From assembly GCA_965195345.1 (NCBI GenBank), contig OZ239628.1:544001-608000 (forward strand): 64,000 bases of DNA, given 5' to 3'. The position numbers and the translations under genes were made by a program. The notes below the pieces were generated by a model. It saw nothing but the letters and a program-made list of their open reading frames with translations, did not search any database and was not told where the DNA came from. The stretch is from an uncultured Thiomicrospira sp. GTDB lineage: Bacteria > Pseudomonadota > Gammaproteobacteria > CAKMZV01. Positions 44,198-57,546 of this stretch are shown here, in pieces. Position 1 is the stretch's first letter. The number at the start of each line of letters is the position of its first letter.

Positions 44198-45283
44198 TTG
44201 AGTGCTAAAAATATTGCGGTTGTTGGAGGAGGTATCAATGGCATTATGATTGCATGGCAACTGTTAAAAGCAGGATGCCATGTTACTATTTATGAACAAG
44301 GTTCCGTCATGCAACAGACCTCCAGCGCATCTTCAAAATTGCTACATGGTGGATTAAGATACATTGAACATTGTCAATTTTCAATGGTGAAAGAGGCGCT
44401 TGCAGAACGTAATTGGTGGATTGAGCAAGCGCCCCATATTGCCCATCCACTTCAATTTTTCATTCCGGTTTATAAATCTTATAAACGCCCTTCATTTTTA
44501 TATTGGTTAGGACTTTTTATCTACGATGCACTTGCAGGCAAACATCGAATCAAACGTTTCAAAAAAATTAATAAAACGATGATGAAAAAACATTGTTCAG
44601 AACTAAAAGAAAACGGATTATGTGGAGGGTTTTCTTATTTTGATGGGCAGATGGACGACTATACATTGGGCATGTGGGCAGTGGATAAAGTCCGCAGTTT
44701 TAAAAACTGCACGATTAAAGAAAACACCGAAGTTAAGAAGATCGAGCTCGATGGACGAGTATGTGGGAGTTATTTTGACAGCTATTTCGATCACATTGTG
44801 AATGCAAGCGGATGCTACGTTGAACATTTATTGACTAAAAGTGGTTTAGACTCCAAGCATTCCATTGATTTAGTGCGTGGTTCGCACATTGTTATTGATC
44901 GTTGTATTACTCAAGCCTATTTTCTCGAGGTTCCAGGTGAAAAACGTATGTTTTTTGTTCTGCCTTATCAAAATAAAACAATGATTGGAACAACCGAAAT
45001 GCGTGTAAAAATAGATGATGCAGTTGTTGCCAGTGAAGAGGAGGTTGACTATCTAATAAAGGCTTTTAACCATTACTTCAAAAAGTCGATAGATCGAGGG
45101 GCAATAAGCGCAATTTTTGCAGGAGTTCGTCCATTGATTAAAAGTACTAAAGATTCAAGTTTAGCAAGCAGAGAATACGCAATTGAACAGCAGGGAAAAA
45201 TCATTAGTGTTTTTGGTGGAAAGTGGACGACTTCTAGGAAATTAGCGCAATTAGTCGCTGATAAAATCGTAACTGGAATTTAA
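44198..45283 (+). CDS. short glycerol-3-phosphate dehydrogenase/oxidase family FAD enzyme
   Basis: VVGGGING, TSSASSKLLHGGLRY, RGSHIV, IGTTE, AGVRPL, GGKWTT; ends without the long GlpD C-terminal domain. Confidence 0.8.
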   Translation: MSAKNIAVVGGGINGIMIAWQLLKAGCHVTIYEQGSVMQQTSSASSKLLHGGLRYIEHCQFSMVKEALAERNWWIEQAPHIAHPLQFFIPVYKSYKRPSFLYWLGLFIYDALAGKHRIKRFKKINKTMMKKHCSELKENGLCGGFSYFDGQMDDYTLGMWAVDKVRSFKNCTIKENTEVKKIELDGRVCGSYFDSYFDHIVNASGCYVEHLLTKSGLDSKHSIDLVRGSHIVIDRCITQAYFLEVPGEKRMFFVLPYQNKTMIGTTEMRVKIDDAVVASEEEVDYLIKAFNHYFKKSIDRGAISAIFAGVRPLIKSTKDSSLASREYAIEQQGKIISVFGGKWTTSRKLAQLVADKIVTGI

Positions 45284-45456
45284 TTATTTAAGAATTCTTA
45301 CGGTTAAAGCCCGCATGATTGGAGAATGATTAGAAACAACTCAATGCGTGATTATCCGTTAAAAAGTAACTATCTATGGTGCATAATAGTAGGGTAACAT
45401 TGCTGTTTAATCAACCGCTTTAATCGATTTTTTTGCTCAACGTAATTAGGAAAGAC

Positions 45457-46629
45457 ATGCATCCAAAATTAGAAAGGACTATTGCAATACTGGGTGACTT
45501 GATTGCATTCCCAACGATATCTTCTGACAGTAATTTGGCGCTAATCACTTATATTGAGAAATTGGTTAAGCCGTTAAATCCAAAAATAAATTTCACCTAC
45601 GATACCAGTCAAGGAAAGGCAAATATTTTGATCAGCTTGCCTGATGAATCAGGGAGTACTCAAGGTGGTATTTTGCTATCTGGGCATACCGATGTGGTGC
45701 CTGTTGATGGGCAAGAATGGAAGCATGAACCTTTTAAAATGACCCAACGCGATGGAAAATTATTTGGGCGAGGCAGTTGCGACATGAAAGGATTTATTGC
45801 CGCATGTTTGGCGATGTTTCCTGATTTTGCCGTATTGATCCGCAAGCAACCGTTGCACATGGCGTTTAGTTTTGATGAAGAAGTGGGCTGTTTGGGTGCT
45901 GGGTTATTAGTGGAAGAAATGCGTCGTCTTGACATTGTGCCTAAAATTGCCATTATTGGTGAACCTACTGATATGCAAGTGATAGAAGGGCATAAAGGGT
46001 GCTATGACTATACAACCTATCTGCATGGATTGGCTGGGCATGGATCGTTACCCCATTTAGGCGTTAGTGCGGTTGAGTACGGAGTGTGTTATGCACATAA
46101 ATTGTTGGCTATGCAGGCTTATTTGGAATCTGCAGCACCCAAAGAAAGTTGTTTTGATCCAGCGCATACCACGTTAATTATTGGTGGAATACGTGGTGGC
46201 GTTGCCCATAATGTCATCGCTGATCATTGCGAAATTGATTGGCAAATGCGCCCCGTTCGTTCAGGGGATGATACTTATGTGCATGAACACATAGATTCGT
46301 ATGCCAAAGAAGAGCTATTGCCCAAAATGCAAGCTGTTTATAAAGACGCATCGATTGAGAAAAAAACATTGAGTGAGGTCGGCGGTTTAGAGCCTATGCC
46401 TGATTCTCAGGCGCGTGAAGTTGTTTGCCAATTAGTTGGTAATGATAAAACAGGTTTTGTATCGTACGGTACTGAAGCAGGGTTGTTTCAAGGGTTGGGT
46501 ACATCCTGCGTGGTTTGCGGTCCGGGATCAATTCGACAAGCACACAAAGCGGATGAGTTTGTCAGTGTTTCTCAGATGGAGCAATGTTTGCAGATGTTGA
46601 GTGCTTTAAAAAATCACCTGAATGCCTGA
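45457..46629 (+). CDS. argE: acetylornithine deacetylase (M20 family)
   Basis: LSGHTDVVP, GRGSCDMKGF, FDEEVGC, IGEPT, YGTEAG, GPGSIRQAHKADE; AGGAAAG RBS before ATG 45457. Confidence 0.88.
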   Translation: MHPKLERTIAILGDLIAFPTISSDSNLALITYIEKLVKPLNPKINFTYDTSQGKANILISLPDESGSTQGGILLSGHTDVVPVDGQEWKHEPFKMTQRDGKLFGRGSCDMKGFIAACLAMFPDFAVLIRKQPLHMAFSFDEEVGCLGAGLLVEEMRRLDIVPKIAIIGEPTDMQVIEGHKGCYDYTTYLHGLAGHGSLPHLGVSAVEYGVCYAHKLLAMQAYLESAAPKESCFDPAHTTLIIGGIRGGVAHNVIADHCEIDWQMRPVRSGDDTYVHEHIDSYAKEELLPKMQAVYKDASIEKKTLSEVGGLEPMPDSQAREVVCQLVGNDKTGFVSYGTEAGLFQGLGTSCVVCGPGSIRQAHKADEFVSVSQMEQCLQMLSALKNHLNA

Positions 46630-47701
46630 ATACGCGCTTTGTTTTGTTGGCGGTGGACCAGCGACGCTTCACTATTTGTCGATGACCCCTCATCTTCACA
46701 AATGGCTCAATTTGGGGCTGGCAATTGTTTGTCCCGAACAACTTGGCTATGGACAAAGCCTCAACTACAACATCCATTCTAATGATCAAGCAAAGACGTT
46801 TATCGAAGGTGTGCAACCTGATTTTATCAAGGTGCTTGATTTCCCTTGGGATACCGATTTGGAATCATCACCTATGTTAGGTGCAGTGGCTTGGCCGATG
46901 TTTCGCAGTATCGGAGAGGAGGTTGCTAAACGTGTTAGCGCATCACCTAAAAGTAAAAAAATTGATGACTCAGTGGAAAGAATCATCATGAATAAGCAAG
47001 GTTTTACATTGCAGTTGGCAACAGGGTCTGAGATTAGGAGTAAAGTGGTTTGTGTGAATACAGGGGCTGGATTGGCTGATTCAATCTTTTCCAACGAGCA
47101 GCTACAAATATTGAATGGGTTGGCTATCAATGTAATCCACAGTGATGTGTTTCAGCGAAATGCTTACGCTGACTACATAATTAAGCAACACAACTTTGCT
47201 ATTATCGGAGCATCGCACAGCGCGATGTCTGCGAGTAAGATGATTAAACGTTTGAATTCTAAAGCGCGTATTGATTTTTTCTATCGGAGTGAACCTAATA
47301 GAAAGAATATTGCGAATCCGTACAAGGCTTGGTTTGATGAAATATTTGCTGGTAAGGTTGAAGGTGTTAGCAATCATTTAATTGAAGATATATCAGCGCT
47401 ATTTCCCCACCTAACACAATTTGATACGGTGGTGGAAGCTGTCGGGTATAAGCGGAATATAATTCCTTTGTACGATGAGAAAAATCAAAAAATAAACAGC
47501 ACTCAAAAGCCCGATATGTACGGTAGGATTCAAGACGATATTGATAATGAATTGAAGGGTTTTTTCGGTTTTGGGTTAATGAGACCTGTGCATGGATTAA
47601 ATCCCAAAACAATTGCACATCATCAGCGAATTGTTGAAGGATTTGGTTTGCTTGCAGAAACCAAAATTATGGATGGATGCTTTTCGGCTATTTTGCGATA
47701 G
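46622..47701 (+). CDS. FAD/NAD(P)-binding oxidoreductase-like protein, unknown function
   Basis: two Rossmann-like motifs FVGGGPA and IIGASHSA, plus VVCVNTGA and VVEAVGY; overlaps argE stop. Confidence 0.65.
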   Translation: MPEYALCFVGGGPATLHYLSMTPHLHKWLNLGLAIVCPEQLGYGQSLNYNIHSNDQAKTFIEGVQPDFIKVLDFPWDTDLESSPMLGAVAWPMFRSIGEEVAKRVSASPKSKKIDDSVERIIMNKQGFTLQLATGSEIRSKVVCVNTGAGLADSIFSNEQLQILNGLAINVIHSDVFQRNAYADYIIKQHNFAIIGASHSAMSASKMIKRLNSKARIDFFYRSEPNRKNIANPYKAWFDEIFAGKVEGVSNHLIEDISALFPHLTQFDTVVEAVGYKRNIIPLYDEKNQKINSTQKPDMYGRIQDDIDNELKGFFGFGLMRPVHGLNPKTIAHHQRIVEGFGLLAETKIMDGCFSAILR

Positions 47702-47716
47702 CATTAGAGCAACGAA

Positions 47717-48364
47717 TCAGACTTCTGCTATTTCAATGATTTCGCTTTCAGCTTTTGCAAGTCGTATCCATTCGCAAACATCATCATCTTTTTGTGTTTT
47801 TTGTATGTAATCATTGACGACATCGCTTACAGGCACATTGTAGGTAACAAAGCGCGTCATTAAAGGGATGAACATGGCATCAGCGATGCTGAACGTTCCA
47901 TATAACCATTCATCCTTATGAGAAAATTGTTGTCTGCATTCAGTGACAATCCACTCGACACGAGCGATTTCTTTTGCGATTTTCTCCGTAATTTCCGCTG
48001 AACGATTTACAGCGCGTAAATTCATAGGCAAATTTTTGCGAATATGGATAAAGCCTGAATGCATTTCGGCGGCTATAGAGCGCGAGTGCGCTCTATAGCG
48101 ACACTCTTTTGGCCAAATATTTGGGTTCTTTTCAGCGATGTGCTCTGCTATGGCAAGAGAGTCCCAGACGGTCACTTCTCCGTCTTTCAATATAGGCACG
48201 TTGCCTGCTTTTGAATAATGGCTTATGTCTTTTTCAAATCCCTCAACAAACAGTGGAATACGCACCTCTTCAAAGAGGATGTTTGATTTGCGCATAACCA
48301 GCCACGCACGCATCGACCAGCTTGAATAATTGCGGTTTCCTATTATGAGTATTGGTTTATTCAT
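47717..48364 (-). CDS. glutathione S-transferase family protein
   Basis: IGNRNYSSWSMRAW, VWDSLAIAE, AEMHSGF, FSIADAMF. Confidence 0.92.
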   Translation of the reverse strand: MNKPILIIGNRNYSSWSMRAWLVMRKSNILFEEVRIPLFVEGFEKDISHYSKAGNVPILKDGEVTVWDSLAIAEHIAEKNPNIWPKECRYRAHSRSIAAEMHSGFIHIRKNLPMNLRAVNRSAEITEKIAKEIARVEWIVTECRQQFSHKDEWLYGTFSIADAMFIPLMTRFVTYNVPVSDVVNDYIQKTQKDDDVCEWIRLAKAESEIIEIAEV

Positions 48365-48932
48365 TATTTTCAATGTCGTTAAAAATTGCTTCTGATAAAA
48401 CTTCGTCTGTGCTTGCTATTTGACAAAATTCATCATTAAGGCTAAGTAAATGGATACGATGAATTTCTTCTGCACTAAATTGATTGCCTTCACTGTCTTT
48501 TCGGTCGAAAGTTGCGGTTGCATCCTCTACCAATACAACGACAAAGCCTAGATTACTCGCCATGCGCACGCTGGTGGAAACACAGTGATCTGTTGTTAAA
48601 CCAACGATGACCAAACGATGAATATTCTGGGTAAGCAAGTATTTCTCTAAATCGGTACCTATAAATGCACTATTGACGTTTTTGCGAAATACCATTTCAC
48701 CTGCCAAGGGTAATGCTTCATTTTTACAGGCATTGCCTGAATGATTTGGGTGTAAAGGTGAATTTTCCAACGTGGAATCGTGGTGGACGTGTATAACCTC
48801 ATTACCATTGCTGCGCCAGAATGCCAATAAACGCGCAATATTTATTTCAGCATCGAGGTTATTGCGCCGACCGAAGGTCTCTTTGGAAAACCCTTGCTGA
48901 ACATCAATAACTAATAGTGCTGCAGAGTACAT
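48357..48932 (-). CDS. isochorismatase-like cysteine hydrolase
   Basis: LLVIDVQQGF, KNVNSAFIGT, GLTTDHCVSTS, DATATF. Confidence 0.92.
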   Translation of the reverse strand: MYSAALLVIDVQQGFSKETFGRRNNLDAEINIARLLAFWRSNGNEVIHVHHDSTLENSPLHPNHSGNACKNEALPLAGEMVFRKNVNSAFIGTDLEKYLLTQNIHRLVIVGLTTDHCVSTSVRMASNLGFVVVLVEDATATFDRKDSEGNQFSAEEIHRIHLLSLNDEFCQIASTDEVLSEAIFNDIENNE

Positions 48933-49322
48933 AATTCGCTTAATTTATATGCTTGTAATTAGTGGATTTAAGAGATCAGAATCTTAAAGTTTGAACTTTA
49001 TAATTTGCCCTTATCAGAGCTTTGGGTGATTATCAGAATAACCAAAATCCTCGTTGACGCATTATAGACTACTTTGTGTATACGTACGTTGAGGTCATTT
49101 AAGAAGTTTATCAACGATCGATTGCTGATTGATAACCCCCATTCTACTTAAATAATGCGTGTTGTCTGCTTCCACTCTTGATGCTGCTTTAAAGGCTATG
49201 AGTGCTCGTATTCCCTTATAGTCCACAGGCTATGTTACCCTAGTGGCTTTTGTCAAACAATAGTGTAAAATGATTAAATCTCATCCAAATGATGGTGCTC
49301 ATTTTGGGGGAAGGTCAATATC

Positions 49323-49445
49323 AATGACCGTGTTGATGAAGAGAGGAGTTTGGAAGGCGCGATTGAAGGTTGGCAACAATCTTGAATCGCATTAAAACAA
49401 TAAACCAAGAAACTACTCGAGAGCTTGGAGGAATTGGGATATTAA
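49323..49445 (+). pseudogene. hsdM: decayed 3' end of type I R-M methyltransferase (HsdM-like)
   Basis: Manual translation NDRVDEERSLEGAIEGWQQS*IALKQ*TKKLLESLEELGY* resembles the HsdM C-terminal helix; both stops are one C>T change from CGA/CAA; ends 15 nt before the CD-NTase. Confidence 0.55.
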
Positions 49446-49460
49446 ATGGAGATATAAATT

Positions 49461-50411
49461 ATGAATTATCAAGAAAAACTCACGCAACTCTACAGAAGGA
49501 AAAATAATATTACAACTTCTACCTTTTCAGAATCAGTTGACTCTCTAACGCAAAGCAACATAAATGAAAATAAAGCACTGAAATATATTCGTAAAGCAAT
49601 GGAAGAAGTAGAAGATAACTATAGAAGAAAAACAATCGAAGCTGCAGTTAAAGTTGGTAATCACTTAAAAGAATTTAACTGCGAATTTAGATTACAGGGT
49701 TCTGTTACTACTCAAACAGAAATAACGCAAAGCAGTGATGTTGACCTAGTGGTTATTACAGATAAAGCTGTAACTATAGCGAAAGGATTAAGAAACGATA
49801 ATCCATATCAAGGCAACTTAACTGAAGATTTAAGAGTACTTAGATGTCAATGTGAGGAAAAACTCCGTAATATATATCAAGACGTTAAAATCAATGGCTC
49901 CAAATCCATTGAAGTCTACTTAACTAACCCTAAGAGGAAGGTAGATGTTGTAGTTGCAAACTGGTACAAAACGTATCATTTCAATCAAACTTCTATCGAA
50001 CATGACAAAGGAATCTATCTGTATGATAAAAAACAAGACGAACGTATTGGACCAGATTTTCCATTTTTAAGATCATACAAAATTAAGTATCACCAAAACA
50101 GAGAGAAAATCAGAAAGATGGTTCGATTTATGAAAAATTTTCGAGCAGATTTTGAAATACAAAATCTTACCAGTTTTCAAATTAATTGCATTGCATACGA
50201 CTTACCTTATGCTTTGTATTATTCCAATGAGGAAATTGAGTGGCTCAAAGAACTACTGGACTATTTGCCAGAGCAAGGTTATCACCAGGAAATTGATTCT
50301 CCGTGTAAAAAGGAAAAAGTACGAATTAATCATAACCCAACACTAGAGAAAGTATTAAGTAAACTCATCGAAGATGCGAGTTACATAGCATATGAAGACG
50401 CTATTTTTTAA
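49461..50411 (+). CDS. CBASS cyclic dinucleotide synthase (CD-NTase, CdnE-like)
   Basis: FRLQGSV..QTEI...SDVDLVV (GS + DxD), GSKSIEV, RKVDVVVA (third Asp), KGIYLYDK, KMVRFMKN, LTSFQI..IAY; GGAGA RBS; adjacent TIR-STING gene. Confidence 0.9.
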   Translation: MNYQEKLTQLYRRKNNITTSTFSESVDSLTQSNINENKALKYIRKAMEEVEDNYRRKTIEAAVKVGNHLKEFNCEFRLQGSVTTQTEITQSSDVDLVVITDKAVTIAKGLRNDNPYQGNLTEDLRVLRCQCEEKLRNIYQDVKINGSKSIEVYLTNPKRKVDVVVANWYKTYHFNQTSIEHDKGIYLYDKKQDERIGPDFPFLRSYKIKYHQNREKIRKMVRFMKNFRADFEIQNLTSFQINCIAYDLPYALYYSNEEIEWLKELLDYLPEQGYHQEIDSPCKKEKVRINHNPTLEKVLSKLIEDASYIAYEDAIF

Positions 50412-51321
50412 TGAAAAAATAATGAACACAAAAAATGAAAAAATAATGAATACAAAAAATGAAAAAATAATGAATACAAAAAATGAAAAAATAATGAATA
50501 CAAAAAATGAAAAAAAGAAAATTTTTATTGGCTCTTCAAGTGAGGCCTTACAACACTTACAAGATATTAGAAAAAAACTTGAAAATGACTTTGAAGTAAT
50601 AGCATGGAATGATCCAGGAGTATATTCACTAAACAATCAATCCTTTCTTGATTCATTGATTAAACAGTCATATTTAGTTGATTTTGCCATATTTATAGCG
50701 GCTTCCGACGATATAACTCAAAGTAGAGGAAAAGAACAAAAATCAACTAGAGATAATGTGATTTTTGAGTTTGGTATGTTTTTACAATCTCTTGGTAAAG
50801 ACAGGTGTTTTATGTTAGTAGAGAGTGACAGCAGGGTTCTTTCAGATATGACTGGTATCACAATTAAAAAATTTTCAGACCCAATATCGCTTGACCACAC
50901 AATACATGAACTAAAAAATAATTTATTGCAAAGGAAGAAACATATACCGTCTCTGGTGACTACAGGATTAGCCTACGGTTACTATAAGAACTTTATTAAA
51001 AAACTTGCTGAGTGCGAAAAGTGTACAGCATTAACTATCCATTTAGGAAGAATATCTTTTAATCCGAAAGAATATAAAAAATATCAATCTGATGATTTTC
51101 CTGTCAGGCAAGCATTTCACAAATCAAATGATTGCGGCAGTTTTGTTGATTACCCAACTACATTAGAAGTAATAGATGATATTATTAATGATAAAAGTGA
51201 ATTGAGTGAAGATGAAAAAGAGCGCTATAGAAAAAGGGAGATAGGAAATTTTCAATTAGTGATTGAACGTAGAATGGAAAACGAAAGTTTTAAAAGCAAA
51301 GTTAACTTTTTATGCAGTTAA
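50392..51321 (+). CDS. cap12: CBASS effector Cap12-type TIR-STING
   Basis: TIR: KIFIGSSSE, LDSLIKQ..VDFAI, DDITQSRG, RDNVIFEFGMF (catalytic Glu), SDMTGIT; STING-like: TGLAYGYYKNFIK, VDYPTTL, KREIGNF; true start may be ATG 50422/50446/50470/50494. Confidence 0.88.
   Translation: MKTLFFNEKIMNTKNEKIMNTKNEKIMNTKNEKIMNTKNEKKKIFIGSSSEALQHLQDIRKKLENDFEVIAWNDPGVYSLNNQSFLDSLIKQSYLVDFAIFIAASDDITQSRGKEQKSTRDNVIFEFGMFLQSLGKDRCFMLVESDSRVLSDMTGITIKKFSDPISLDHTIHELKNNLLQRKKHIPSLVTTGLAYGYYKNFIKKLAECEKCTALTIHLGRISFNPKEYKKYQSDDFPVRQAFHKSNDCGSFVDYPTTLEVIDDIINDKSELSEDEKERYRKREIGNFQLVIERRMENESFKSKVNFLCS
50410..50515 (+). repeat. 24-bp tandem repeat, 4 full copies plus 10-bp partial
   Basis: unit AATGAAAAAATAATGAA(C/T)ACAAAA at 50410, 50434, 50458, 50482 and partial at 50506; encodes (NEKIMNTK)n in the effector frame. 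Confidence 0.95.
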
Positions 51322-51331
51322 CAGAGAAATA

Positions 51332-51472
51332 AAAAGGTCGCGCATCGTGAAATTTGATGAGGTAGTAGCACAGCAAATATCAAAAAGAAGTAGTTCAACA
51401 GCAGATGATAGCTTCCGTCACATTGGGTTAGAGCATTTGGATTTAGGCAGCATTAATCGTCAAATAATCTAA
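51332..51472 (+). pseudogene. hsdS: truncated 5' end of type I R-M specificity subunit (HsdS-like)
   Basis: RIVKFDEVVAQQISKR......FRHIGLEHLDLGS resembles the HsdS TRD start (W..VKFGDVV.....YIGLEHLD.GS); terminates after about 45 codons. Confidence 0.6.
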
Positions 51473-51528
51473 TACGGACTGCGTAGAGCAATCTATAAAA
51501 GATTGCCGGACGTTCGGTGTGTATGCTT

Positions 51529-52638
51529 TTAACTGATGACTTTTATAGGGTCATGATAGGGATAACCTAAAGCCTCACTGACCGCTTTATAAGTGACTTT
51601 CCCTGCGTGCACATTGAGTCCGTTTAATAAGTGCTTATCGGACTTGAGTGCTTTTAATCCATTACGCGCAAGGGCAAGTGTAAATGGTAATGTAACGTTA
51701 TTCAATGCATAGGTTGATGTACGCGGAACACTACCTGGCATATTAGCAACGCAGTAATGTACCACACCATCCACTACGTAAGTTGGTTCTTGATGCGTGG
51801 TTGCTCGAGATGTTTCAAAACACCCACCCTGATCAATGGCAACATCAACGACTACAGAGCCTTTTTTCATTCTGCTGATAAGATCTCTGCTCAATAATTT
51901 TGGTGCTGCTGCACCGGGTAATAGTACTGCGCCAATCACTAAGTCAGAATCAAGGGCAAAATTTTCAATCATTTCCATCGTTGAATATACGCACCGTAAA
52001 TTGCTGTAGGTGCGGTCTAAATCGCGCAATCGTTCAACGGAACGATCCATTATAGTAACATCAGCACCCATGCCAATCGCCATTTGAGCAGCGTTTTCAC
52101 CAACAACACCACCGCCTATAATGAGAACTTTGGCGGGTTCAACTCCTGGAACGCCGCCGAGTAGGGTGCCACTGCCACCGTGTGCCTTTTCGAGACAGTG
52201 TGCTCCTGCTTGGATGGAGAGGCGACCTGCAACTTCGCTCATAGGTGCAAGCAGGGGTAGGCGATTACTGTTATCAGTAACCGTTTCATAAGCGATAGCG
52301 GTAACACCGCTTTCCACTAACAAGCGTGTTTGTTCGGGGTCGGGGGCAAGATGTAGGTAAGTGAAAAGAATTTGTCCAGAGCGCAGCATCCGACATTCAT
52401 CGGGTTGAGGCTCTTTCACTTTGACAATCATATCAGCTTGACGATAGATGATCTCTGCGTTGTCAACGATAGTTGCTCCAATTTTTTGGTAGTCGTTATC
52501 ACTGATTCCTATTCCTTCGCCTGCTCCAGACTGGATATGTACTTGGTGATTGTTTCTAATAAGTTCAGCAACACTGGTGGGTGTTAAGCCGACACGATAT
52601 TCATGATTTTTAATTTCTTTTGGAGTGCCTATAATCAT
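51529..52638 (-). CDS. ald: alanine dehydrogenase
   Basis: [59 protein letters not shown]. Confidence 0.97.
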
Positions 52639-52778
52639 TTTTTTAACCTTCAACAACGTTTTAAATTCAAGTGGATATGATAGATGGAAATATTTGATAA
52701 CACTTACTGAAATTGATGCTATTTTTGATTCTTTTCAGTAAAATATATTGTGAAATAAGATTTATAAGGTAAATTATT

Positions 52779-53234
52779 ATGTTAGATGACATTGACAAAA
52801 GACTCTTGTCTATATTACAGGGAAATGGAAGACTTACTTACTCGGCACTTGCTGAGCAAATCGGATTGACAACCAGTCCATGCATTGAGCGTGTCAAGCG
52901 TTTAGAGAGGGAAGGTTATATTCAAGGTTATTCTACATTGCTCAAGGCGGATAAAATGGGCTTGGGATTGGTGGTGTTCGTTCAGATTCAGTTGGACCGC
53001 ACGTCTACTGAAAACTTCTCAGAATTCAGGGAAAGTGTGAAACGGTTGGAATCCGTTCAAGAATGTTATTTGGTGGCGGGCAGCTTTGACTTTTTGATTA
53101 AGGTGCGATTGAACGATATGGAAGCATATAGACGCTTTCTCGAGGATCAATTGCTTACTATTTCAGGGGTGCGCGCGTCAACCACCATTGCGGTTATGGA
53201 AACCATTAAAGAGTCGCTTGCCTTACCGCTTTGA
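52779..53234 (+). CDS. Lrp/AsnC family regulator (probable AldR)
   Basis: LDDIDKRLL..LQ..GRL, PCIERVKRLEREGYI, ECYLVAGSFDFL; divergent from ald. Confidence 0.92.
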   Translation: MLDDIDKRLLSILQGNGRLTYSALAEQIGLTTSPCIERVKRLEREGYIQGYSTLLKADKMGLGLVVFVQIQLDRTSTENFSEFRESVKRLESVQECYLVAGSFDFLIKVRLNDMEAYRRFLEDQLLTISGVRASTTIAVMETIKESLALPL

Positions 53235-53281
53235 GCATGTCCACGCTTGCAGGCGTTTTTCTCTTGATTTTTTTGGAAAGA

Positions 53282-54406
53282 TTAGGGCTTTGCTAAGCGG
53301 CTTTTCAGTACACGTATGCGACTTTTCAAATCACCACGATCAATGTAGCATCCGCGCAGATGGCGTGCTCCAGTTTGTGGGTCAAATTCTGTGCGCCCGT
53401 GCAACACTCTACGGTTATCAAAGACAACCATTTCTTTGCTGCTAAGCTTAAATTTGATGAGGAAAGTAGGGTCACGCATGATTGACATAAACAAACGATA
53501 AGCACGATAAAACGGACGCATCATTTCTTTGGACAGTCTGAATGTGGTTGCTATGTGTGCGTTGTAGTTTATTTCATCAATCGCTCCTTTGTTCAATGAA
53601 ATAACCGACTTGCGTTCAAAGAGATCCCAATTATCATCGTGAAAACGAAAAGGAATAGTGCATTCGCTCAAAATTTTAAATTCTTCAGGATGATGTTGAC
53701 GGATATGTTCGGCAACGGCAAAACCATCAACAAAAATAGACTCACCACCCGTTGACTGATTATTCAAACAATGTAAGAATTGAAATCCGGGGGGCAATTC
53801 TTGATTGGGTAAGTCGGTGTGCAGGGGTAAAGCCTCCGAGGTATATGCTTGATTGTTAGGGTTCGGTTTGGAGCGCACATTGAAAGTGATCCCAAAATTT
53901 GTCTCGCGCATATGAGCAATGCGAAGGGCAATTTTTTCTAATCCATCTTCAGCCATATTGCGTACAAGCACCAGCCCTACGTTATGTAGTTTGATGAGCC
54001 ACTCAGACAGCGCAGCGTCATCATTGAGCAATTGTTCGTACTGTATTTCTATTATATTTTCACCATAGTCGCTTAACCAGCTTTTGCTTTTGAACTTGTT
54101 TTCTGAAACCTCTGCTTGCAGATTGGTGTAATCGTTTTGCAGCAACCACTCAATAGAATACACAGAAGTGTGATTGTCGTTTTGCCAAGTAATGGATAAG
54201 GTTTCGTTTGTTACATCAATTGAAGCGGGGGCAATATCGTCTGAAATACTCAATAAATCAAAATTGCGTTCTTTAGTGCTTGGATGAAAAGCCGATGCGC
54301 AGTTATCACGCAACCAAAGATAGTCAAAATGTGAGATCTGTTGGTTGTCCCAATGTACTTCTAAGTGGTTTTGGAGTTGTTTAGTTTTGGTAATATGTGA
54401 ATTCAT
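53282..54406 (-). CDS. gamma-butyrobetaine dioxygenase-like (TauD/TfdA family)
   Basis: N-terminal WLRDNC...HTSVY GBBH-like domain; NQAYT..LPLHTDLP, QFLHC, FVDGF, FDNRRVLHGR, LRGCY. Confidence 0.88.
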   Translation of the reverse strand: MNSHITKTKQLQNHLEVHWDNQQISHFDYLWLRDNCASAFHPSTKERNFDLLSISDDIAPASIDVTNETLSITWQNDNHTSVYSIEWLLQNDYTNLQAEVSENKFKSKSWLSDYGENIIEIQYEQLLNDDAALSEWLIKLHNVGLVLVRNMAEDGLEKIALRIAHMRETNFGITFNVRSKPNPNNQAYTSEALPLHTDLPNQELPPGFQFLHCLNNQSTGGESIFVDGFAVAEHIRQHHPEEFKILSECTIPFRFHDDNWDLFERKSVISLNKGAIDEINYNAHIATTFRLSKEMMRPFYRAYRLFMSIMRDPTFLIKFKLSSKEMVVFDNRRVLHGRTEFDPQTGARHLRGCYIDRGDLKSRIRVLKSRLAKP

Positions 54407-55713: not shown

Positions 55714-57546
55714 TTAGCTGGCTTTTTCTTTCTCAGGTTGCTTAGGGCGTCTTGGTCGATTGTGATAACGACGGTTGGAATTATTTCTATTCTCACCGTT
55801 TCTGTTGTTATTGTTTCTGCGATTGTTGTTTCTGTTATTCCTATAGTTATTGGCTTTCTTAGGAGGTGCTTTTTTGGGCATCACTAAATCTAATAACCGC
55901 TGTATAAGACTTATTTTCTTTTTTGGTGCTTGGGTATCAGGACTGACATGGGCAATTGCTGGTTTTTCCTTATGAGTAGGTGGGCGTGCCATGCGATTTA
56001 ATAAATCTTTTGTAGAATCTTTGGATTTTGTTTTGTTCTCAAAACTGGCAGAGTACTTTCCAAGTCGTTTGTCACCCAATTCAATTATTTCTAAATCAAA
56101 ATGCGAATAGTGAATGTTTTCGTTGGGTATGATAACGATAGAAACGCTTTGGCGCTCTTCAATGCGTAAAATATCACTGCGCTTTTCATTGATAATGAAG
56201 GTTGCTAAGTCGGTTGGTAATTGCAGATATATGCGCACTGCCCCTTTGCTGGTTGCTGCTTCTTCTAAAGAGCGAATGATGCCAGCAGCTGAGGATTCTA
56301 TGCTACGGGTAATGCCTGATCCACCACAGCTTGGGCAGAGCATCTGGTTTTTGTCAACCAGAGAAGAACCTATTCGTTGGCGCGACATCTCCATCAAACC
56401 AAAACGAGATATACGTGATGTTTTAATACGTGCACGATCGAATTGCAAAGCTTGTTCAAAGTGCTCTTCAACTTTATGGCGGTTACCATTGCTAGACATG
56501 TCGATGTAATCAATAACCATCAAACCGCCGAGATCACGCAAACGTAGCTGGCGAGCAACTTCTGTTGCCGCTTCAAGGTTTGTTTGTAGAGCAGTTTCTT
56601 CAATACCTTTGCCCTGAGTAGCACGGCCTGAGTTGACATCAATTGAAATCAATGCTTCAGTGGCATCAATGACAATAGCACCTCCCGAAGGTAAGATGAC
56701 TTCTCTTGCGAAAGCGCCTTCTATTTGCGTTTCTATATCGAAATGATTGAACAACGGTAATGGATTAGAATATTTCTTCAAATTTGGAGCGAAGTCAGGA
56801 ATGGCTTCACGGATAAAATTGAATGCCCGTTGATAGGTATCATCGTCATCAATGATTATTTCTTCAACATCGGAACGGAGATGGTCACGTATTGTGCGTT
56901 CAATTAATCCGTCTTCTTGATAGATTAGGAAAGGTCCTTTTTTCTTTGCAGCAGCCGATTGAATCAATCCCCATAATTTGAGCATATACTGTAAGTTCCA
57001 CTGCAGTTCCTCAATGCTTCTGCCTGCCGCGGATGTGCGCAAAATAAGACGCATTCCTTCAGGGACAACTAATTTTTCTAAAGATTCACGTGTTTCGCGA
57101 CGCTGAGTGTCATCGAGGGATCGAGAAACACCTCTTGCATTGTTACCTGCGCTCTCGCTTGTTGGCATAAGTACAAGAAAAGCCCCTGCAATGGAAATGA
57201 AAGTAGTTAAAGAAGCGCCTTTAGTACCTCGTTCTTCTTTGTCGACTTGAATAATTAACTCTTGTCCTGATTTAATCTGTTGATCAACAGTTAAGTCTTC
57301 GCTGGGTTGTTGGAAACAACCGCTGTGTATTTCTTTGAAGGGAAGAAAGCCATGACGCTCTTGCCCGAAATTGACAAAAGCAGCCTCAAGGCTTGGTTCA
57401 ACACGAGTGATAACACCTTTATAAATGTTAGAACGTTTATTGTTACTTGCAGCTGTTTCGATACTTAAATCAAACAACTGAGTCTCTTCCACCAGTGCCA
57501 CTCGCAACTCTGCTGGATTATTAGCATTTATTAGAATCCTTTTCAT
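55714..57546 (-). CDS. rne: ribonuclease E (short C-terminal scaffold)
   Basis: MKRILINA..ELRVALV, NIYKG..RVEPSLEAAFV, IDVNSGRAT, DYIDM, CPSCGGSG Zn-link, amphipathic SLIQRLLDLV, R/N-rich tail. Confidence 0.95.
   Translation of the reverse strand: MKRILINANNPAELRVALVEETQLFDLSIETAASNNKRSNIYKGVITRVEPSLEAAFVNFGQERHGFLPFKEIHSGCFQQPSEDLTVDQQIKSGQELIIQVDKEERGTKGASLTTFISIAGAFLVLMPTSESAGNNARGVSRSLDDTQRRETRESLEKLVVPEGMRLILRTSAAGRSIEELQWNLQYMLKLWGLIQSAAAKKKGPFLIYQEDGLIERTIRDHLRSDVEEIIIDDDDTYQRAFNFIREAIPDFAPNLKKYSNPLPLFNHFDIETQIEGAFAREVILPSGGAIVIDATEALISIDVNSGRATQGKGIEETALQTNLEAATEVARQLRLRDLGGLMVIDYIDMSSNGNRHKVEEHFEQALQFDRARIKTSRISRFGLMEMSRQRIGSSLVDKNQMLCPSCGGSGITRSIESSAAGIIRSLEEAATSKGAVRIYLQLPTDLATFIINEKRSDILRIEERQSVSIVIIPNENIHYSHFDLEIIELGDKRLGKYSASFENKTKSKDSTKDLLNRMARPPTHKEKPAIAHVSPDTQAPKKKISLIQRLLDLVMPKKAPPKKANNYRNNRNNNRRNNNNRNGENRNNSNRRYHNRPRRPKQPEKEKAS

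Follow-up and report, generated by a model that had tools for sequence, protein, structure and literature searches.

The locus lies in a 64,000-nucleotide stretch of DNA, here called the window, and consists of two adjoining genes on the forward strand, a cyclase ORF (49461..50411, 316 aa) and an effector ORF (50392..51321, 309 aa), both open in frame and of full length. The cyclase is a CD-NTase of clade E and of the STING-associated CdnE type, assigned by profile, PDB match and predicted fold, and a Shine-Dalgarno-like GGAG (49448..49451, + strand) stands 9 nt upstream of its ATG. The effector, counted from M35 (50494..51321, + strand, 275 aa), is a Cap12 TIR-STING protein by Pfam, PADLOC, NCBIfam, PDB and AF2, and comprises a TIR NADase domain of the CAP12/Pycsar type (ORF residues 43-162, 50518..50877) followed by a compact STING domain for the binding of cyclic dinucleotides (about residues 186-309 of the ORF, 50947..51318). 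The original prediction, made from the DNA, was of an apparently intact two-gene CBASS system consisting of a CdnE-like cyclase and a TIR-STING effector. Its ORF coordinates and all quoted motifs of both genes are present in the translations, and the HMM and PADLOC searches it proposed match both genes, the cyclase to the PADLOC model Cyclase PDLC00807 (E 3.9e-66) and the effector to the TIR effector model PDLC00729 (E 9.7e-63). Profiles, solved-structure matches and predicted folds agree on this identification.

The gene pair is situated in a low-GC, A-rich islet with approximate limits 49250..51500, where GC is 0.29-0.34 and AT skew is +0.11 to +0.28, compared with a GC of about 0.40 (about 0.38-0.45) and a skew of about 0 in the flanks; the greater A-richness of the two genes had been noticed at the outset. 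The 1861-bp interval 49461-51321 has a GC content of 0.3095 against a genome mean of 0.398 (z -3.5), as low a value being found in 58 of 19,189 genome segments of the same size, and its |AT skew| of 0.197 belongs to the top 1.2% genome-wide. The pair is absent from the two same-genus and two same-family genomes searched. This foreign composition and this absence support the predicted horizontal acquisition of 49461-51321 as a pair within an islet of about 2 kb. No direct repeats bounding the islet were found in a repeat scan, and no tRNA or integrase was seen beside it. DNA-level similarity to the same-genus and same-family genomes is confined to ald (about 70% identity), and a tblastn search of 15 window proteins against the 15-20 kb around the ald genes of the relatives returned ald only; the insertion borders are not definable, since the relatives share only this gene. 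A match in G020, considered as a TIR-STING, was rejected, as it covers the TIR only (residues 40-163).

The flanks contain isochorismatase-like, GST-like and other housekeeping-type genes. None of the eight flanking proteins (44198-54406) matched a CBASS accessory model of PADLOC, and Cap2/Cap3 (E1/E2, JAB) or HORMA/TRIP13 genes do not adjoin the pair in this set; three marginal matches (E 2e-4 to 9e-4) were to unrelated models. A CD-NTase with an intact site next to an effector gene on the same strand, with accessory models unmatched, is the layout of type I CBASS. Promoter-like sites at the locus are at or below chance (8 versus 12.0 expected). A weak terminator-like hairpin with a T-rich tail (51504..51529, + strand) is a possible operon end, though not a significant one, the consensus scan having found one such site versus 1.2 expected from shuffles. 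The sole match to RNA families in 48000-52500 was a nematode snoRNA (E 0.5). An HsdS remnant, suspected at 51323-51469, was dropped, having no Pfam match at E up to 10, and a 43-aa frame upstream has no Pfam match either.

The closest PDB sequences to the cyclase are 6wt9 and 6wt8 (E about 4e-30), c-di-GMP synthases of Capnocytophaga granulosa and Flavobacteriaceae sp., respectively, with the next CdnE at 1.2e-6. The same two are its best matches by fold: the AF2 model (pLDDT 79) has Z 24.7 to 6wt8 (281 residues aligned, 3.5 A) and 22.8 to 6wt9, versus 17-19 to other CdnE and about 14-15 to CdnB, CdnD, CdnG and DncV. The similarity includes the N-terminal helical extension, model residues 1..310 being aligned, whereas other CdnE align from about residue 37. 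The catalytic residues G80-S81, D93-x-D95 and D162 are aligned with the same residues in 6wt8 and 6wt9, where the GS, DxD and D motifs are likewise intact, and all five are invariant in nine of nine members of the cyclase clade. The expectation of a CdnE-like cyclase with an intact active site is thereby borne out, and its nearest solved relatives prove to be two STING-associated CdnE enzymes. Identity to these is 31-32%; the present protein is 35-49 residues shorter (316 versus 351 and 365 aa) and lacks an internal stretch of about 20 residues past the DxD strand. It scores below the NCBIfam equivalog cut-offs of CBASS_cyclase_b (26.2 versus 200 bits) and DS2_2_antiphage (49.3 versus 350 bits), models built for other subgroups. 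The product is most likely a 3'3' cyclic dinucleotide, with c-di-GMP suggested by the nearest relatives and by a host without GGDEF proteins.

The effector matches PDB 7un8 by sequence (3.2e-36) and canonical Cap12 by hhalign (probability 100, E 1.1e-57), and its AF2 model (pLDDT 86.1, pTM 0.73) is similar to SfSTING (7un8_E) with Z 22.2 over 252 residues at 2.6 A. The TIR domain scores 96.7 bits against Pfam CAP12-PCTIR_TIR (PF10137, cut-off 24.7) and contains the anticipated catalytic glutamate, Glu126 of the RDNVIFE motif (codon 50767-50769). The pocket and catalytic residues of SfSTING listed in the consulted part of PMC9402430, F6, S10, W33, F37, L47, R78, N80, E84, and D110, correspond to F45, S49, W72, Y78, L89, R120, N122, E126, and D152; thus all nine positions are kept, eight of them identical and one changed from F37 to Y78. 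As a whole, the protein is far under the curated Cap12 equivalog cut-off of 450 (158.3 bits with NF050172 and 134.8 bits with NF050171), so that pipelines relying on such cut-offs may leave copies of this kind unnamed. Judging from its sequence, we regard it as a divergent branch of Cap12.

The C-terminus was predicted to be STING-like, and it both matches and folds as STING: it scores 35.0 bits against Pfam prok_STING (PF20300, cut-off 27.1; 41.1 bits summed in the own-genome search), and the last 122 residues of the model (152-275) have Z 12.5-12.9 to the STING domains of 7ebd, 8hy9 and 6wt4. Its landmarks are helix alpha1 with LAYGYYKNF (F201), DYPTTL and REIGNF, and its alpha1-to-anchor distance is the shortest among the 111 proteins compared. 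A homodimer of this domain with c-di-GMP is predicted with a median score of 0.75 (best of three controls, 0.01), which, since similar complexes have been solved, speaks for likeness only; of proteins solved as one-chain pairs, 20 of 30 reach the mark, and of those solved as single chains, one of 23. The prediction runs share at least 80% of contacts, with a partner pLDDT of 81-82, and may echo solved STING dimers. The predicted interface is formed by the canonical alpha1/alpha3 surface and the R239/Q240 lid.

The two proteins fall into a tight, metagenome-only clade that is rare, forming at 50% identity a single cluster out of 1.84 billion representatives. For seven of eight cyclase homologues, the longest contig equals in size that of a compact-effector cluster or member, and these equal sizes of the source contigs suggest that the operon unit may be conserved in the clade. 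Alignment-based scans for compact-clade relatives gave 63 pattern matches in genome contigs, 271 in metagenome contigs and 20 in viral contigs, and none was confirmed.

We propose that the pair is probably a horizontally acquired, intact and minimal type I CBASS abortive-infection system, with c-di-GMP as its most likely signal; the nucleotide, the filaments, the NADase activity and the protection are what we infer. Upon phage infection, the CdnE-type cyclase would synthesise a 3'3' cyclic dinucleotide, c-di-GMP being the likeliest one, and the compact STING dimer would clamp it beneath a two-stranded lid carrying R239. Closed STING dimers could then polymerise, placing TIR domains side by side so that E126 and, from the partner, D152 form a composite NADase site. 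The resulting destruction of NAD+ would halt the infected cell ahead of phage maturation. TIR-STING is toxic to cells that contain c-di-GMP.

The choice of c-di-GMP is relevant to the host, a deep-branching uncultured gammaproteobacterium with a single-contig genome that is 99.71% complete. A profile search of this genome gave no matches to GGDEF, EAL or PilZ, while the control searches were positive in eight, six and five of 14 named genomes, respectively. An independent tblastn search had a best E of 2.6, and no GG[DE]EF motif occurs in host open frames of at least 100 aa. The three domains are also absent from all four other genomes of the host family searched. With GGDEF occurring in 250 of the 300 class genomes sampled, and lacking in the other 50, its absence lends only moderate support. 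In the consulted parts of PMC13375341 and bioRxiv 10.1101/2023.11.15.567273 it is proposed that the use of c-di-GMP as a phage alarm is restricted to hosts without housekeeping c-di-GMP, and ElCdnE is described in section 5 of PMC12421889 as producing 3'3'-c-di-GMP only. The present host fits this exclusivity rule, and since its lineage is without housekeeping c-di-GMP machinery, the nucleotide would be free to act as a dedicated alarm signal. The host was also foreseen to be atypical, characterised examples being mostly from Bacteroidota. Indeed, prok_STING was found in one of 400 class genomes sampled and in two of 401 from the phylum, with G000 contributing to each count, and the four characterised hosts looked up are all Bacteroidota. 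The other STING-positive genome of the phylum sample, G422, has five GGDEF matches, and therefore the rule is not general for every STING-domain protein; its STING protein has a different architecture, with no cyclase within the 3.3 kb read.

The lid of the STING domain also bears on the signal. According to PMC8748872, as far as consulted, ligand specificity is dictated by the lid motif, and bacterial STING lids are divided into class I, RX(Y/F), specific for c-di-GMP, and class II, RXR. The effector lid reads P237-V238-R239-Q-A241-F242 (R239 codon 51106-51108). Here, R239 is tentatively assigned as the lid arginine from hhalign, a local resemblance between RQAFHK and RGYPFHFK, and a predicted lid-lid contact, in preference to the MAFFT register, which placed SfSTING R234 opposite a gap and was set aside. 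In the compact clade the lid is R-x-A-[F/Y/S], with R239 and A241 invariant in ten of ten members, and it fits neither published class in 13 of 14 compact sequences, the remaining one being scored as class I by a spurious upstream RKF. Since the lid R239-Q-A241-F242 is outside both classes, the Arg/aromatic/guanine/Phe stack of solved complexes cannot form exactly alike. The same system could thus use another signal, the R-x-A-[F/Y] lid and the shortened pocket reading, for instance, 3'3'-cGAMP or c-di-AMP from a co-evolved CdnE; the identity of the cyclase to c-di-GMP synthases is, after all, just 31-32%, and the products of CdnE enzymes vary, according to the portion of PMC13375341 consulted. 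However, among solved cyclases the c-di-GMP synthases are clearly the nearest, F201 (F169 of ElSTING) and the invariant lid arginine are retained, and the absence of GGDEF, EAL and PilZ from the host and its family is expected with a c-di-GMP alarm and otherwise unexplained. Moreover, among 97 other TIR-STINGs, 17 are likewise outside both lid classes, which indicates that the two-class scheme is incomplete. We therefore consider a different nucleotide possible but rather unlikely. Similarly doubtful is the idea that the compact clade forms a third ligand-recognition class of bacterial STING, a minimal sensor of about 122 residues with a binding mode other than the four-layer stack of class I, possibly a ligand other than c-di-GMP, and a different filament interface.

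The preferred reading, an intact system, also has to accommodate the junction between the two genes. A stop/start cascade (50409..50424, + strand) is found there: the cyclase TAA (50409-50411) overlaps the ATG (50411) of a three-codon mini-ORF, MKK*, and the TAA of the latter (50420-50422) overlaps the effector ATG at 50422 (M11), the first in-frame one past the cyclase stop. This arrangement suggests translational coupling. Further in-frame ATGs of the effector are at 50392, 50446, 50470 and 50494 (M35). The start at 50392, with its 20-nt overlap with the cyclase, is probably not real, and since the clade relatives start 2-8 residues ahead of KIFIGSS, M35 is the probable ancestral start. The effector start region is duplicated by a 24-bp tandem repeat (50410..50515, + strand, 4.4 copies, 98% matches, TRF score 205; family D1 in the repeat scan), which, if translated, gives four copies of NEKIMNTK. 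The repeat is found in none of the clade relatives, being unique to the present copy, and its unit was not found elsewhere in the host genome. It may add 24 residues to the N-terminus of the TIR or weaken the coupling.

One could accordingly view the pair as a decaying or silenced remnant, in which the effector was uncoupled or crippled when the repeat expanded, with protection lost. The repeat, unique within the clade, lies exactly at the cyclase-effector junction, and no Shine-Dalgarno-like site precedes any effector ATG. In addition, one sample contains frame-breaking differences of the cyclase in two low-depth contigs, a 44-nt skip 49624->49669 at depth 4.5 and, behind 50027, one additional A at depth 5.0, but differences confined to one contig below depth 5 may be errors. 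The open, full-length frames and the intact state of all catalytic and pocket residues checked also argue against decay, and so does the unit length of the repeat: 24 bp is a multiple of three, so the frame is kept and every in-frame ATG yields a complete TIR-STING. Loss of function is thus improbable in our judgement. Least probable, and distinctly unlikely, is that the repeat is a contingency element, in which gain or loss of units shifts the stop-start distance or the length of an N-terminal tail, thereby adjusting how much of a dangerous effector is made: although each unit copies the TAATG...TAATG cascade and the 98% identity of the units implies a recent expansion, the repeat is missing from the relatives, neutral slippage in A-rich DNA would be enough to explain it, and copy-number variation is unreadable because every k-mer contig from the four public sequencing runs with the locus, all of a single study, breaks within the repeat (in run X1, the repeat-internal pieces have depths of 60 and 40.9, and the flanks 20.2 and 22.5).

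The intact type I CBASS system proposed here has its closest known counterpart in SfSTING/Cap12 and CdnE of Sphingobacterium faecium (7un8, 7un9, 7una; PMC9402430), also a type I CBASS. Both have the same two-gene layout and the same order of domains in the effector, with a CAP12-type TIR at the N-terminus and STING at the C-terminus, and have in common the alpha1 aromatic residue, the lid arginine, and the D-x-P-T-T-L and RE..NF blocks. The effectors are 34% identical over aligned residues. The present STING domain is about 40 residues shorter, lacks the extra beta-hairpin past alpha1, and has a shorter lid turn and alpha1-beta1 region; its lid has R-Q-A-F in place of R-G-Y. The filament-interface residues of SfSTING are changed (V280 to E270, E290 to R280, and R307 to N297), and filament packing may therefore differ. 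Finally, the host is a gammaproteobacterium, whereas that of SfSTING belongs to the Bacteroidota.

In the ElCdnE-ElSTING system of Epilithonimonas lactis (9lmq, 9lmr; PMC12421889), the cyclase is likewise upstream and the TIR-STING downstream, and the effector model has Z 19.9-20.0 to ElSTING. F169 and R230 of ElSTING correspond to F201 and R239, whereas F232, two positions past the arginine, is replaced by the invariant A241 in the compact clade, which also lacks the extra beta-hairpin that ElSTING has between CBD-alpha1 and CBD-beta1. PcSTING, MySTING and FsSTING (Ko et al. 2022, PMC8748872, as far as consulted) share the fold and a two-stranded beta lid with a conserved arginine; compared with the class I and II STINGs described there, the aromatic residue of the compact lid comes one position later, and there is one residue fewer between the arginine and the next histidine.

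The system type is already known, and the gene pair leaves the picture of how CBASS works unchanged; what is new is that it occurs here in a rare, shortened version and in an unusual host. The idea that c-di-GMP can act as an alarm only in hosts not using it for housekeeping has so far rested on Bacteroidota, and the present locus offers a test of this host rule in an independent lineage that has lost GGDEF, EAL and PilZ. The compact clade also helps to define the minimal STING core, and its lid variant could be useful for tests of ligand choice.

The two adjoining plus-strand ORFs, a CD-NTase of 316 aa (49461..50411) and a Cap12 TIR-STING effector of 309 aa (50392..51321), lie where the original prediction placed them, and every motif quoted there is present in the sequence. 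The analysis supports its overall interpretation, that is, a genuine and apparently intact type I CBASS consisting of CdnE and TIR-STING. None of the eight neighbouring proteins matches a CBASS accessory model, and the pair is a minimal type I system; the c-di-GMP/TIR-STING form is named 'Type I-D' in the accessible text of a preprint (bioRxiv 10.1101/2023.11.15.567273). The neighbours are isochorismatase-like, GST-like, alanine dehydrogenase, and Lrp-type genes. Directly upstream, in divergent orientation, is an isochorismatase-family hydrolase gene with host-like GC (PF00857, 6.6e-29; 48357-48932, minus strand). This family includes nicotinamidases of NAD salvage, and the location of the gene near that of an NADase effector is probably a coincidence. 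Further along the window, an RNase E/G-like protein (55714-57546, minus strand) has a long, low-complexity C-terminal tail rich in Asn and Arg (NNYRNNRNNNRRNNNNRNGENRNNSNRRYHNRPRR).

The cyclase matches the PADLOC oligonucleotide-cyclase models with E 3.9e-66, and its closest solved relatives by sequence are 6wt9 and 6wt8 (E ~4e-30; next CdnE 1.2e-6), described as 'STING-associated CdnE c-di-GMP synthases'. The structural ranking agrees: an AlphaFold2 model built from a 9-sequence clade alignment (pLDDT 79, pTM 0.76) matches 6wt8 with Z 24.7 (281 residues aligned, 3.5 A) and 6wt9 with Z 22.8, compared with Z 17-19 for other CdnE and ~14-15 for CdnB, CdnD, CdnG, and DncV. The assignment as CdnE-like thus holds both by sequence and by modelled fold. 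The predicted intact GS/DxD/D motifs are confirmed as well, since the catalytic residues of 6wt8 and 6wt9 have their counterparts in G80-S81, D93-x-D95, and D162, which are invariant in 9/9 clade members. The N-terminal 36 residues align with these two enzymes only. The protein as a whole is 35-49 residues shorter than their 351 and 365 aa, and the cut-offs of the NCBIfam cyclase equivalogs are not attained. In the public sequencing runs X3 and X4, which come from one sample, one contig skips 44 nt of the cyclase gene (49624-49669, depth 4.5), and in a second contig one additional A follows 50027 (depth 5.0). Each difference would break the frame and, given the low depth, may be an error; the two could also represent cyclase-null variants in the population.

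The effector is recognized by the PADLOC TIR effector model (E 9.7e-63), by Pfam CAP12-PCTIR_TIR (96.7 bits, cut-off 24.7; residues 43-162), and by Pfam prok_STING (35.0 bits, cut-off 27.1), while both NCBIfam Cap12 equivalog models score 158.3 and 134.8 bits, far under their cut-off of 450. Among solved structures, the sequence is closest to the Cap12 chains 7un8 (SfSTING of Sphingobacterium faecium, 3.2e-36) and 9lmq (ElSTING of Epilithonimonas lactis, 3.6e-31). A model built from the probable native start with a 43-sequence alignment (pLDDT 86.1, pTM 0.73) resembles full-length TIR-STING structures (Foldseek TMq 0.71-0.78), with Z 22.2 over 252 residues at 2.6 A for 7un8_E, 20.0 for 9lmr, and 19.9 for 9lmq. 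The C-terminal 122 residues match the isolated bacterial STING domains 7ebd, 8hy9, and 6wt4 with Z 12.5-12.9, so that the proposed STING domain is upheld by profile and fold alike. Two alignments served to transfer the functional residues of SfSTING given in the accessible text of PMC9402430. Those of the NAD+ pocket and catalysis correspond to F45, S49, W72, Y78, L89, R120, N122, E126, and D152, each of which the clade conserves, whereas the filament-interface residues V280, E290, and R307 of SfSTING are not conserved in the effector.

The effector belongs to a compact clade. A word-indexed search yielded 109 proteins at E <=0.001 among 2867 candidates. They include nine clusters of 267-290 aa (P0002-P0010) that share 49-68% identity with the effector over its full length; the matches to canonical Cap12 proteins (314-325 aa) lie mostly in the TIR half. 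The clade is rare: among the 85 proteins found at E <=1e-30 by an exhaustive profile search of 1.84 billion representatives, it forms a single 50% cluster (P0010, 467.7 bits), the next match having 168.1 bits. Compact and canonical forms are alignable by hhalign (probability 100, E 1.1e-57, 263 columns). According to the alignments and hhalign, the compact proteins, unlike canonical Cap12, lack the segment after alpha1, which in ElSTING is an extra beta-hairpin between CBD-alpha1 and CBD-beta1 (PMC12421889, accessible text); their alpha1-beta1 region and lid turn are also shorter. The distance from alpha1 to DxPTTL is 59-70 residues in 14 compact sequences versus 68-134 (median 90) in the 97 other TIR-STINGs with both anchors. 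As an intermediate group of 286-300 aa exists, the compact form is one end of a continuum rather than a separate architecture.

Of 684 candidates in the word-indexed search, only eight are homologues of the cyclase (282-314 aa, 52-66% identity). For seven of them the longest contig is exactly as long as the longest contig of one of the compact-effector clusters or their members (22191, 4347421, 16423, 2226, 17756, 2478, and 1894), which indirectly suggests that the pair is conserved in relatives. Within the eight-homologue list, the cyclase P0122 has no size-matched effector, and no cyclase pairs in this way with the effectors P0007 and P0010.

Bacterial STINGs of class I, with an RX(Y/F) lid, are specific for c-di-GMP through a four-layer stack, and those of class II, with an RXR lid, prefer 3'3'-cGAMP (Ko et al., PMC8748872, accessible text). 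ElSTING uses R230, F232, and F169 (PMC12421889, accessible text), the last corresponding to F201 of the effector. The invariant R239 of the effector occupies the place expected for the lid arginine; this register is our reading, and MAFFT did not align it with R234, the lid arginine of SfSTING. Position R239+2 is an invariant Ala241, followed by F/Y/S, and 13 of the 14 compact sequences fall outside both classes; the single class I call is spurious, arising from an upstream RKF. In the 97 other TIR-STINGs the lid fits class I in 54, class II in 17, both in 9, and neither in 17, therefore the two-class scheme is not exhaustive. The compact clade has its own uniform lid variant. The loop directly before the lid arginine carries a short internal duplication in P0009 (SSPPVLPASLPALPVR) and seems to tolerate length changes.

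When the STING domain was modelled as a pair in the presence of c-di-GMP, a dimer was predicted with a median score of 0.75 (runs 0.75, 0.78, 0.67; best of three controls 0.01), at least 80% of contacts common to the runs, and partner pLDDT 81-82; the dimer mark is attained by 20/30 proteins solved as one-chain pairs and 1/23 solved as single chains. The predicted interface is made up of alpha1, alpha3, and the lid, the same elements that pair in solved STING dimers, and R239 would contact its symmetry mate. Because similar complexes have already been solved, the prediction indicates likeness to them, not binding by this copy.

A tandem repeat (50410-50515; 24-bp unit x4.4, 98% matches) separates the cyclase stop from the conserved KKIFIGSS. 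The cyclase TAA overlaps the ATG of a 3-codon mini-ORF, whose TAA in turn overlaps the first in-frame effector ATG (50422); every unit carries the same stop/start arrangement, the last in-frame ATG being at 50494. The repeat preserves the reading frame. It is present in none of the compact-clade relatives, whose effectors start 2-8 residues before KIFIGSS, and its unit has no other occurrence in the genome. In run X1, contig pieces from inside the repeat are covered 2-3 times as deeply as the flanks, therefore the repeat is not an assembly artefact. It might extend the N-terminus by a tail of 24 residues, weaken coupling, or have no effect. A 93-aa antisense ORF spanning the repeat (50355-50636, minus strand) encodes a repeated FFVFIIFS peptide and seems to be a side effect of the repeat rather than a gene.

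Both genes had been described as more A-rich than their flanks and horizontally acquired by an atypical host, and the genomic comparisons agree on each point. The pair has GC 0.31 versus a genome mean of 0.398 (z -3.5), as low as in only 58 of 19,189 same-size genome windows, and its |AT skew| is in the top 1.2% genome-wide. The effector was matched in 2/41 genomes of the relatives set, the host itself and G020, where the match is TIR only; it was not found in two same-genus and two same-family genomes. No mobility gene or border repeat was found at the locus. The host, a single 1.92-Mb contig (99.71% complete), has an Ffh with 66% identity to that of a Gammaproteobacteria bacterium MAG (L016) and <=59% to all other matches, nearly all gammaproteobacterial. 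Counting the host itself, prok_STING occurs in 1/400 sampled class and 2/401 phylum genomes, and all four characterised hosts looked up are Bacteroidota. This distribution and the deviant composition jointly support horizontal acquisition into an unusual host.

A suicide enzyme triggered by c-di-GMP should be incompatible with housekeeping c-di-GMP. Bacteroidota are nearly devoid of c-di-GMP signalling, and the hypothesis is that its antiphage and housekeeping uses exclude each other (review, PMC13375341, accessible text); the preprint bioRxiv 10.1101/2023.11.15.567273 states the same for Bacteroides. Profile searches of the host genome for GGDEF, EAL, and PilZ gave no matches, the same searches detecting them in 8, 6, and 5 of 14 named control genomes. 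The GGDEF domain of a class relative gave a best tblastn E of 2.6 on the host, and no host open frame of >=100 aa contains GG[DE]EF. GGDEF is present in 250/300 sampled class genomes and 212/257 high-quality ones, a tally that includes the unpublished genomes G298, G144, and G043, with G251 not scored. It is missing in all four other genomes of the family, therefore its loss is a lineage trait predating acquisition of the pair. G422, the only genome of the phylum sample besides the host to carry prok_STING, has five GGDEF matches and counts against a general exclusivity rule. Its STING protein has a different architecture, with prok_STING (32 bits) behind a weak nucleoside-deoxyribosyltransferase-like N-domain; the gene follows one for an 8xMP octameric membrane protein, with no cyclase within the 3.3 kb read. 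At this locus (L096, C1:3094274-3097609), the STING protein is 353 aa, and ORFs 1300-2361 and 2371-2769 are on the minus strand.

The kind of system is already known. The texts covered by the literature searches contain no description of the compact clade or of a gammaproteobacterial TIR-STING; members may already appear in supplementary lists or trees published with Morehouse 2020 and Ko 2022. New compared with the known systems are the rare compact clade with a lid falling outside both published classes, the gammaproteobacterial host without c-di-GMP signalling, and the repeat in the effector start region.
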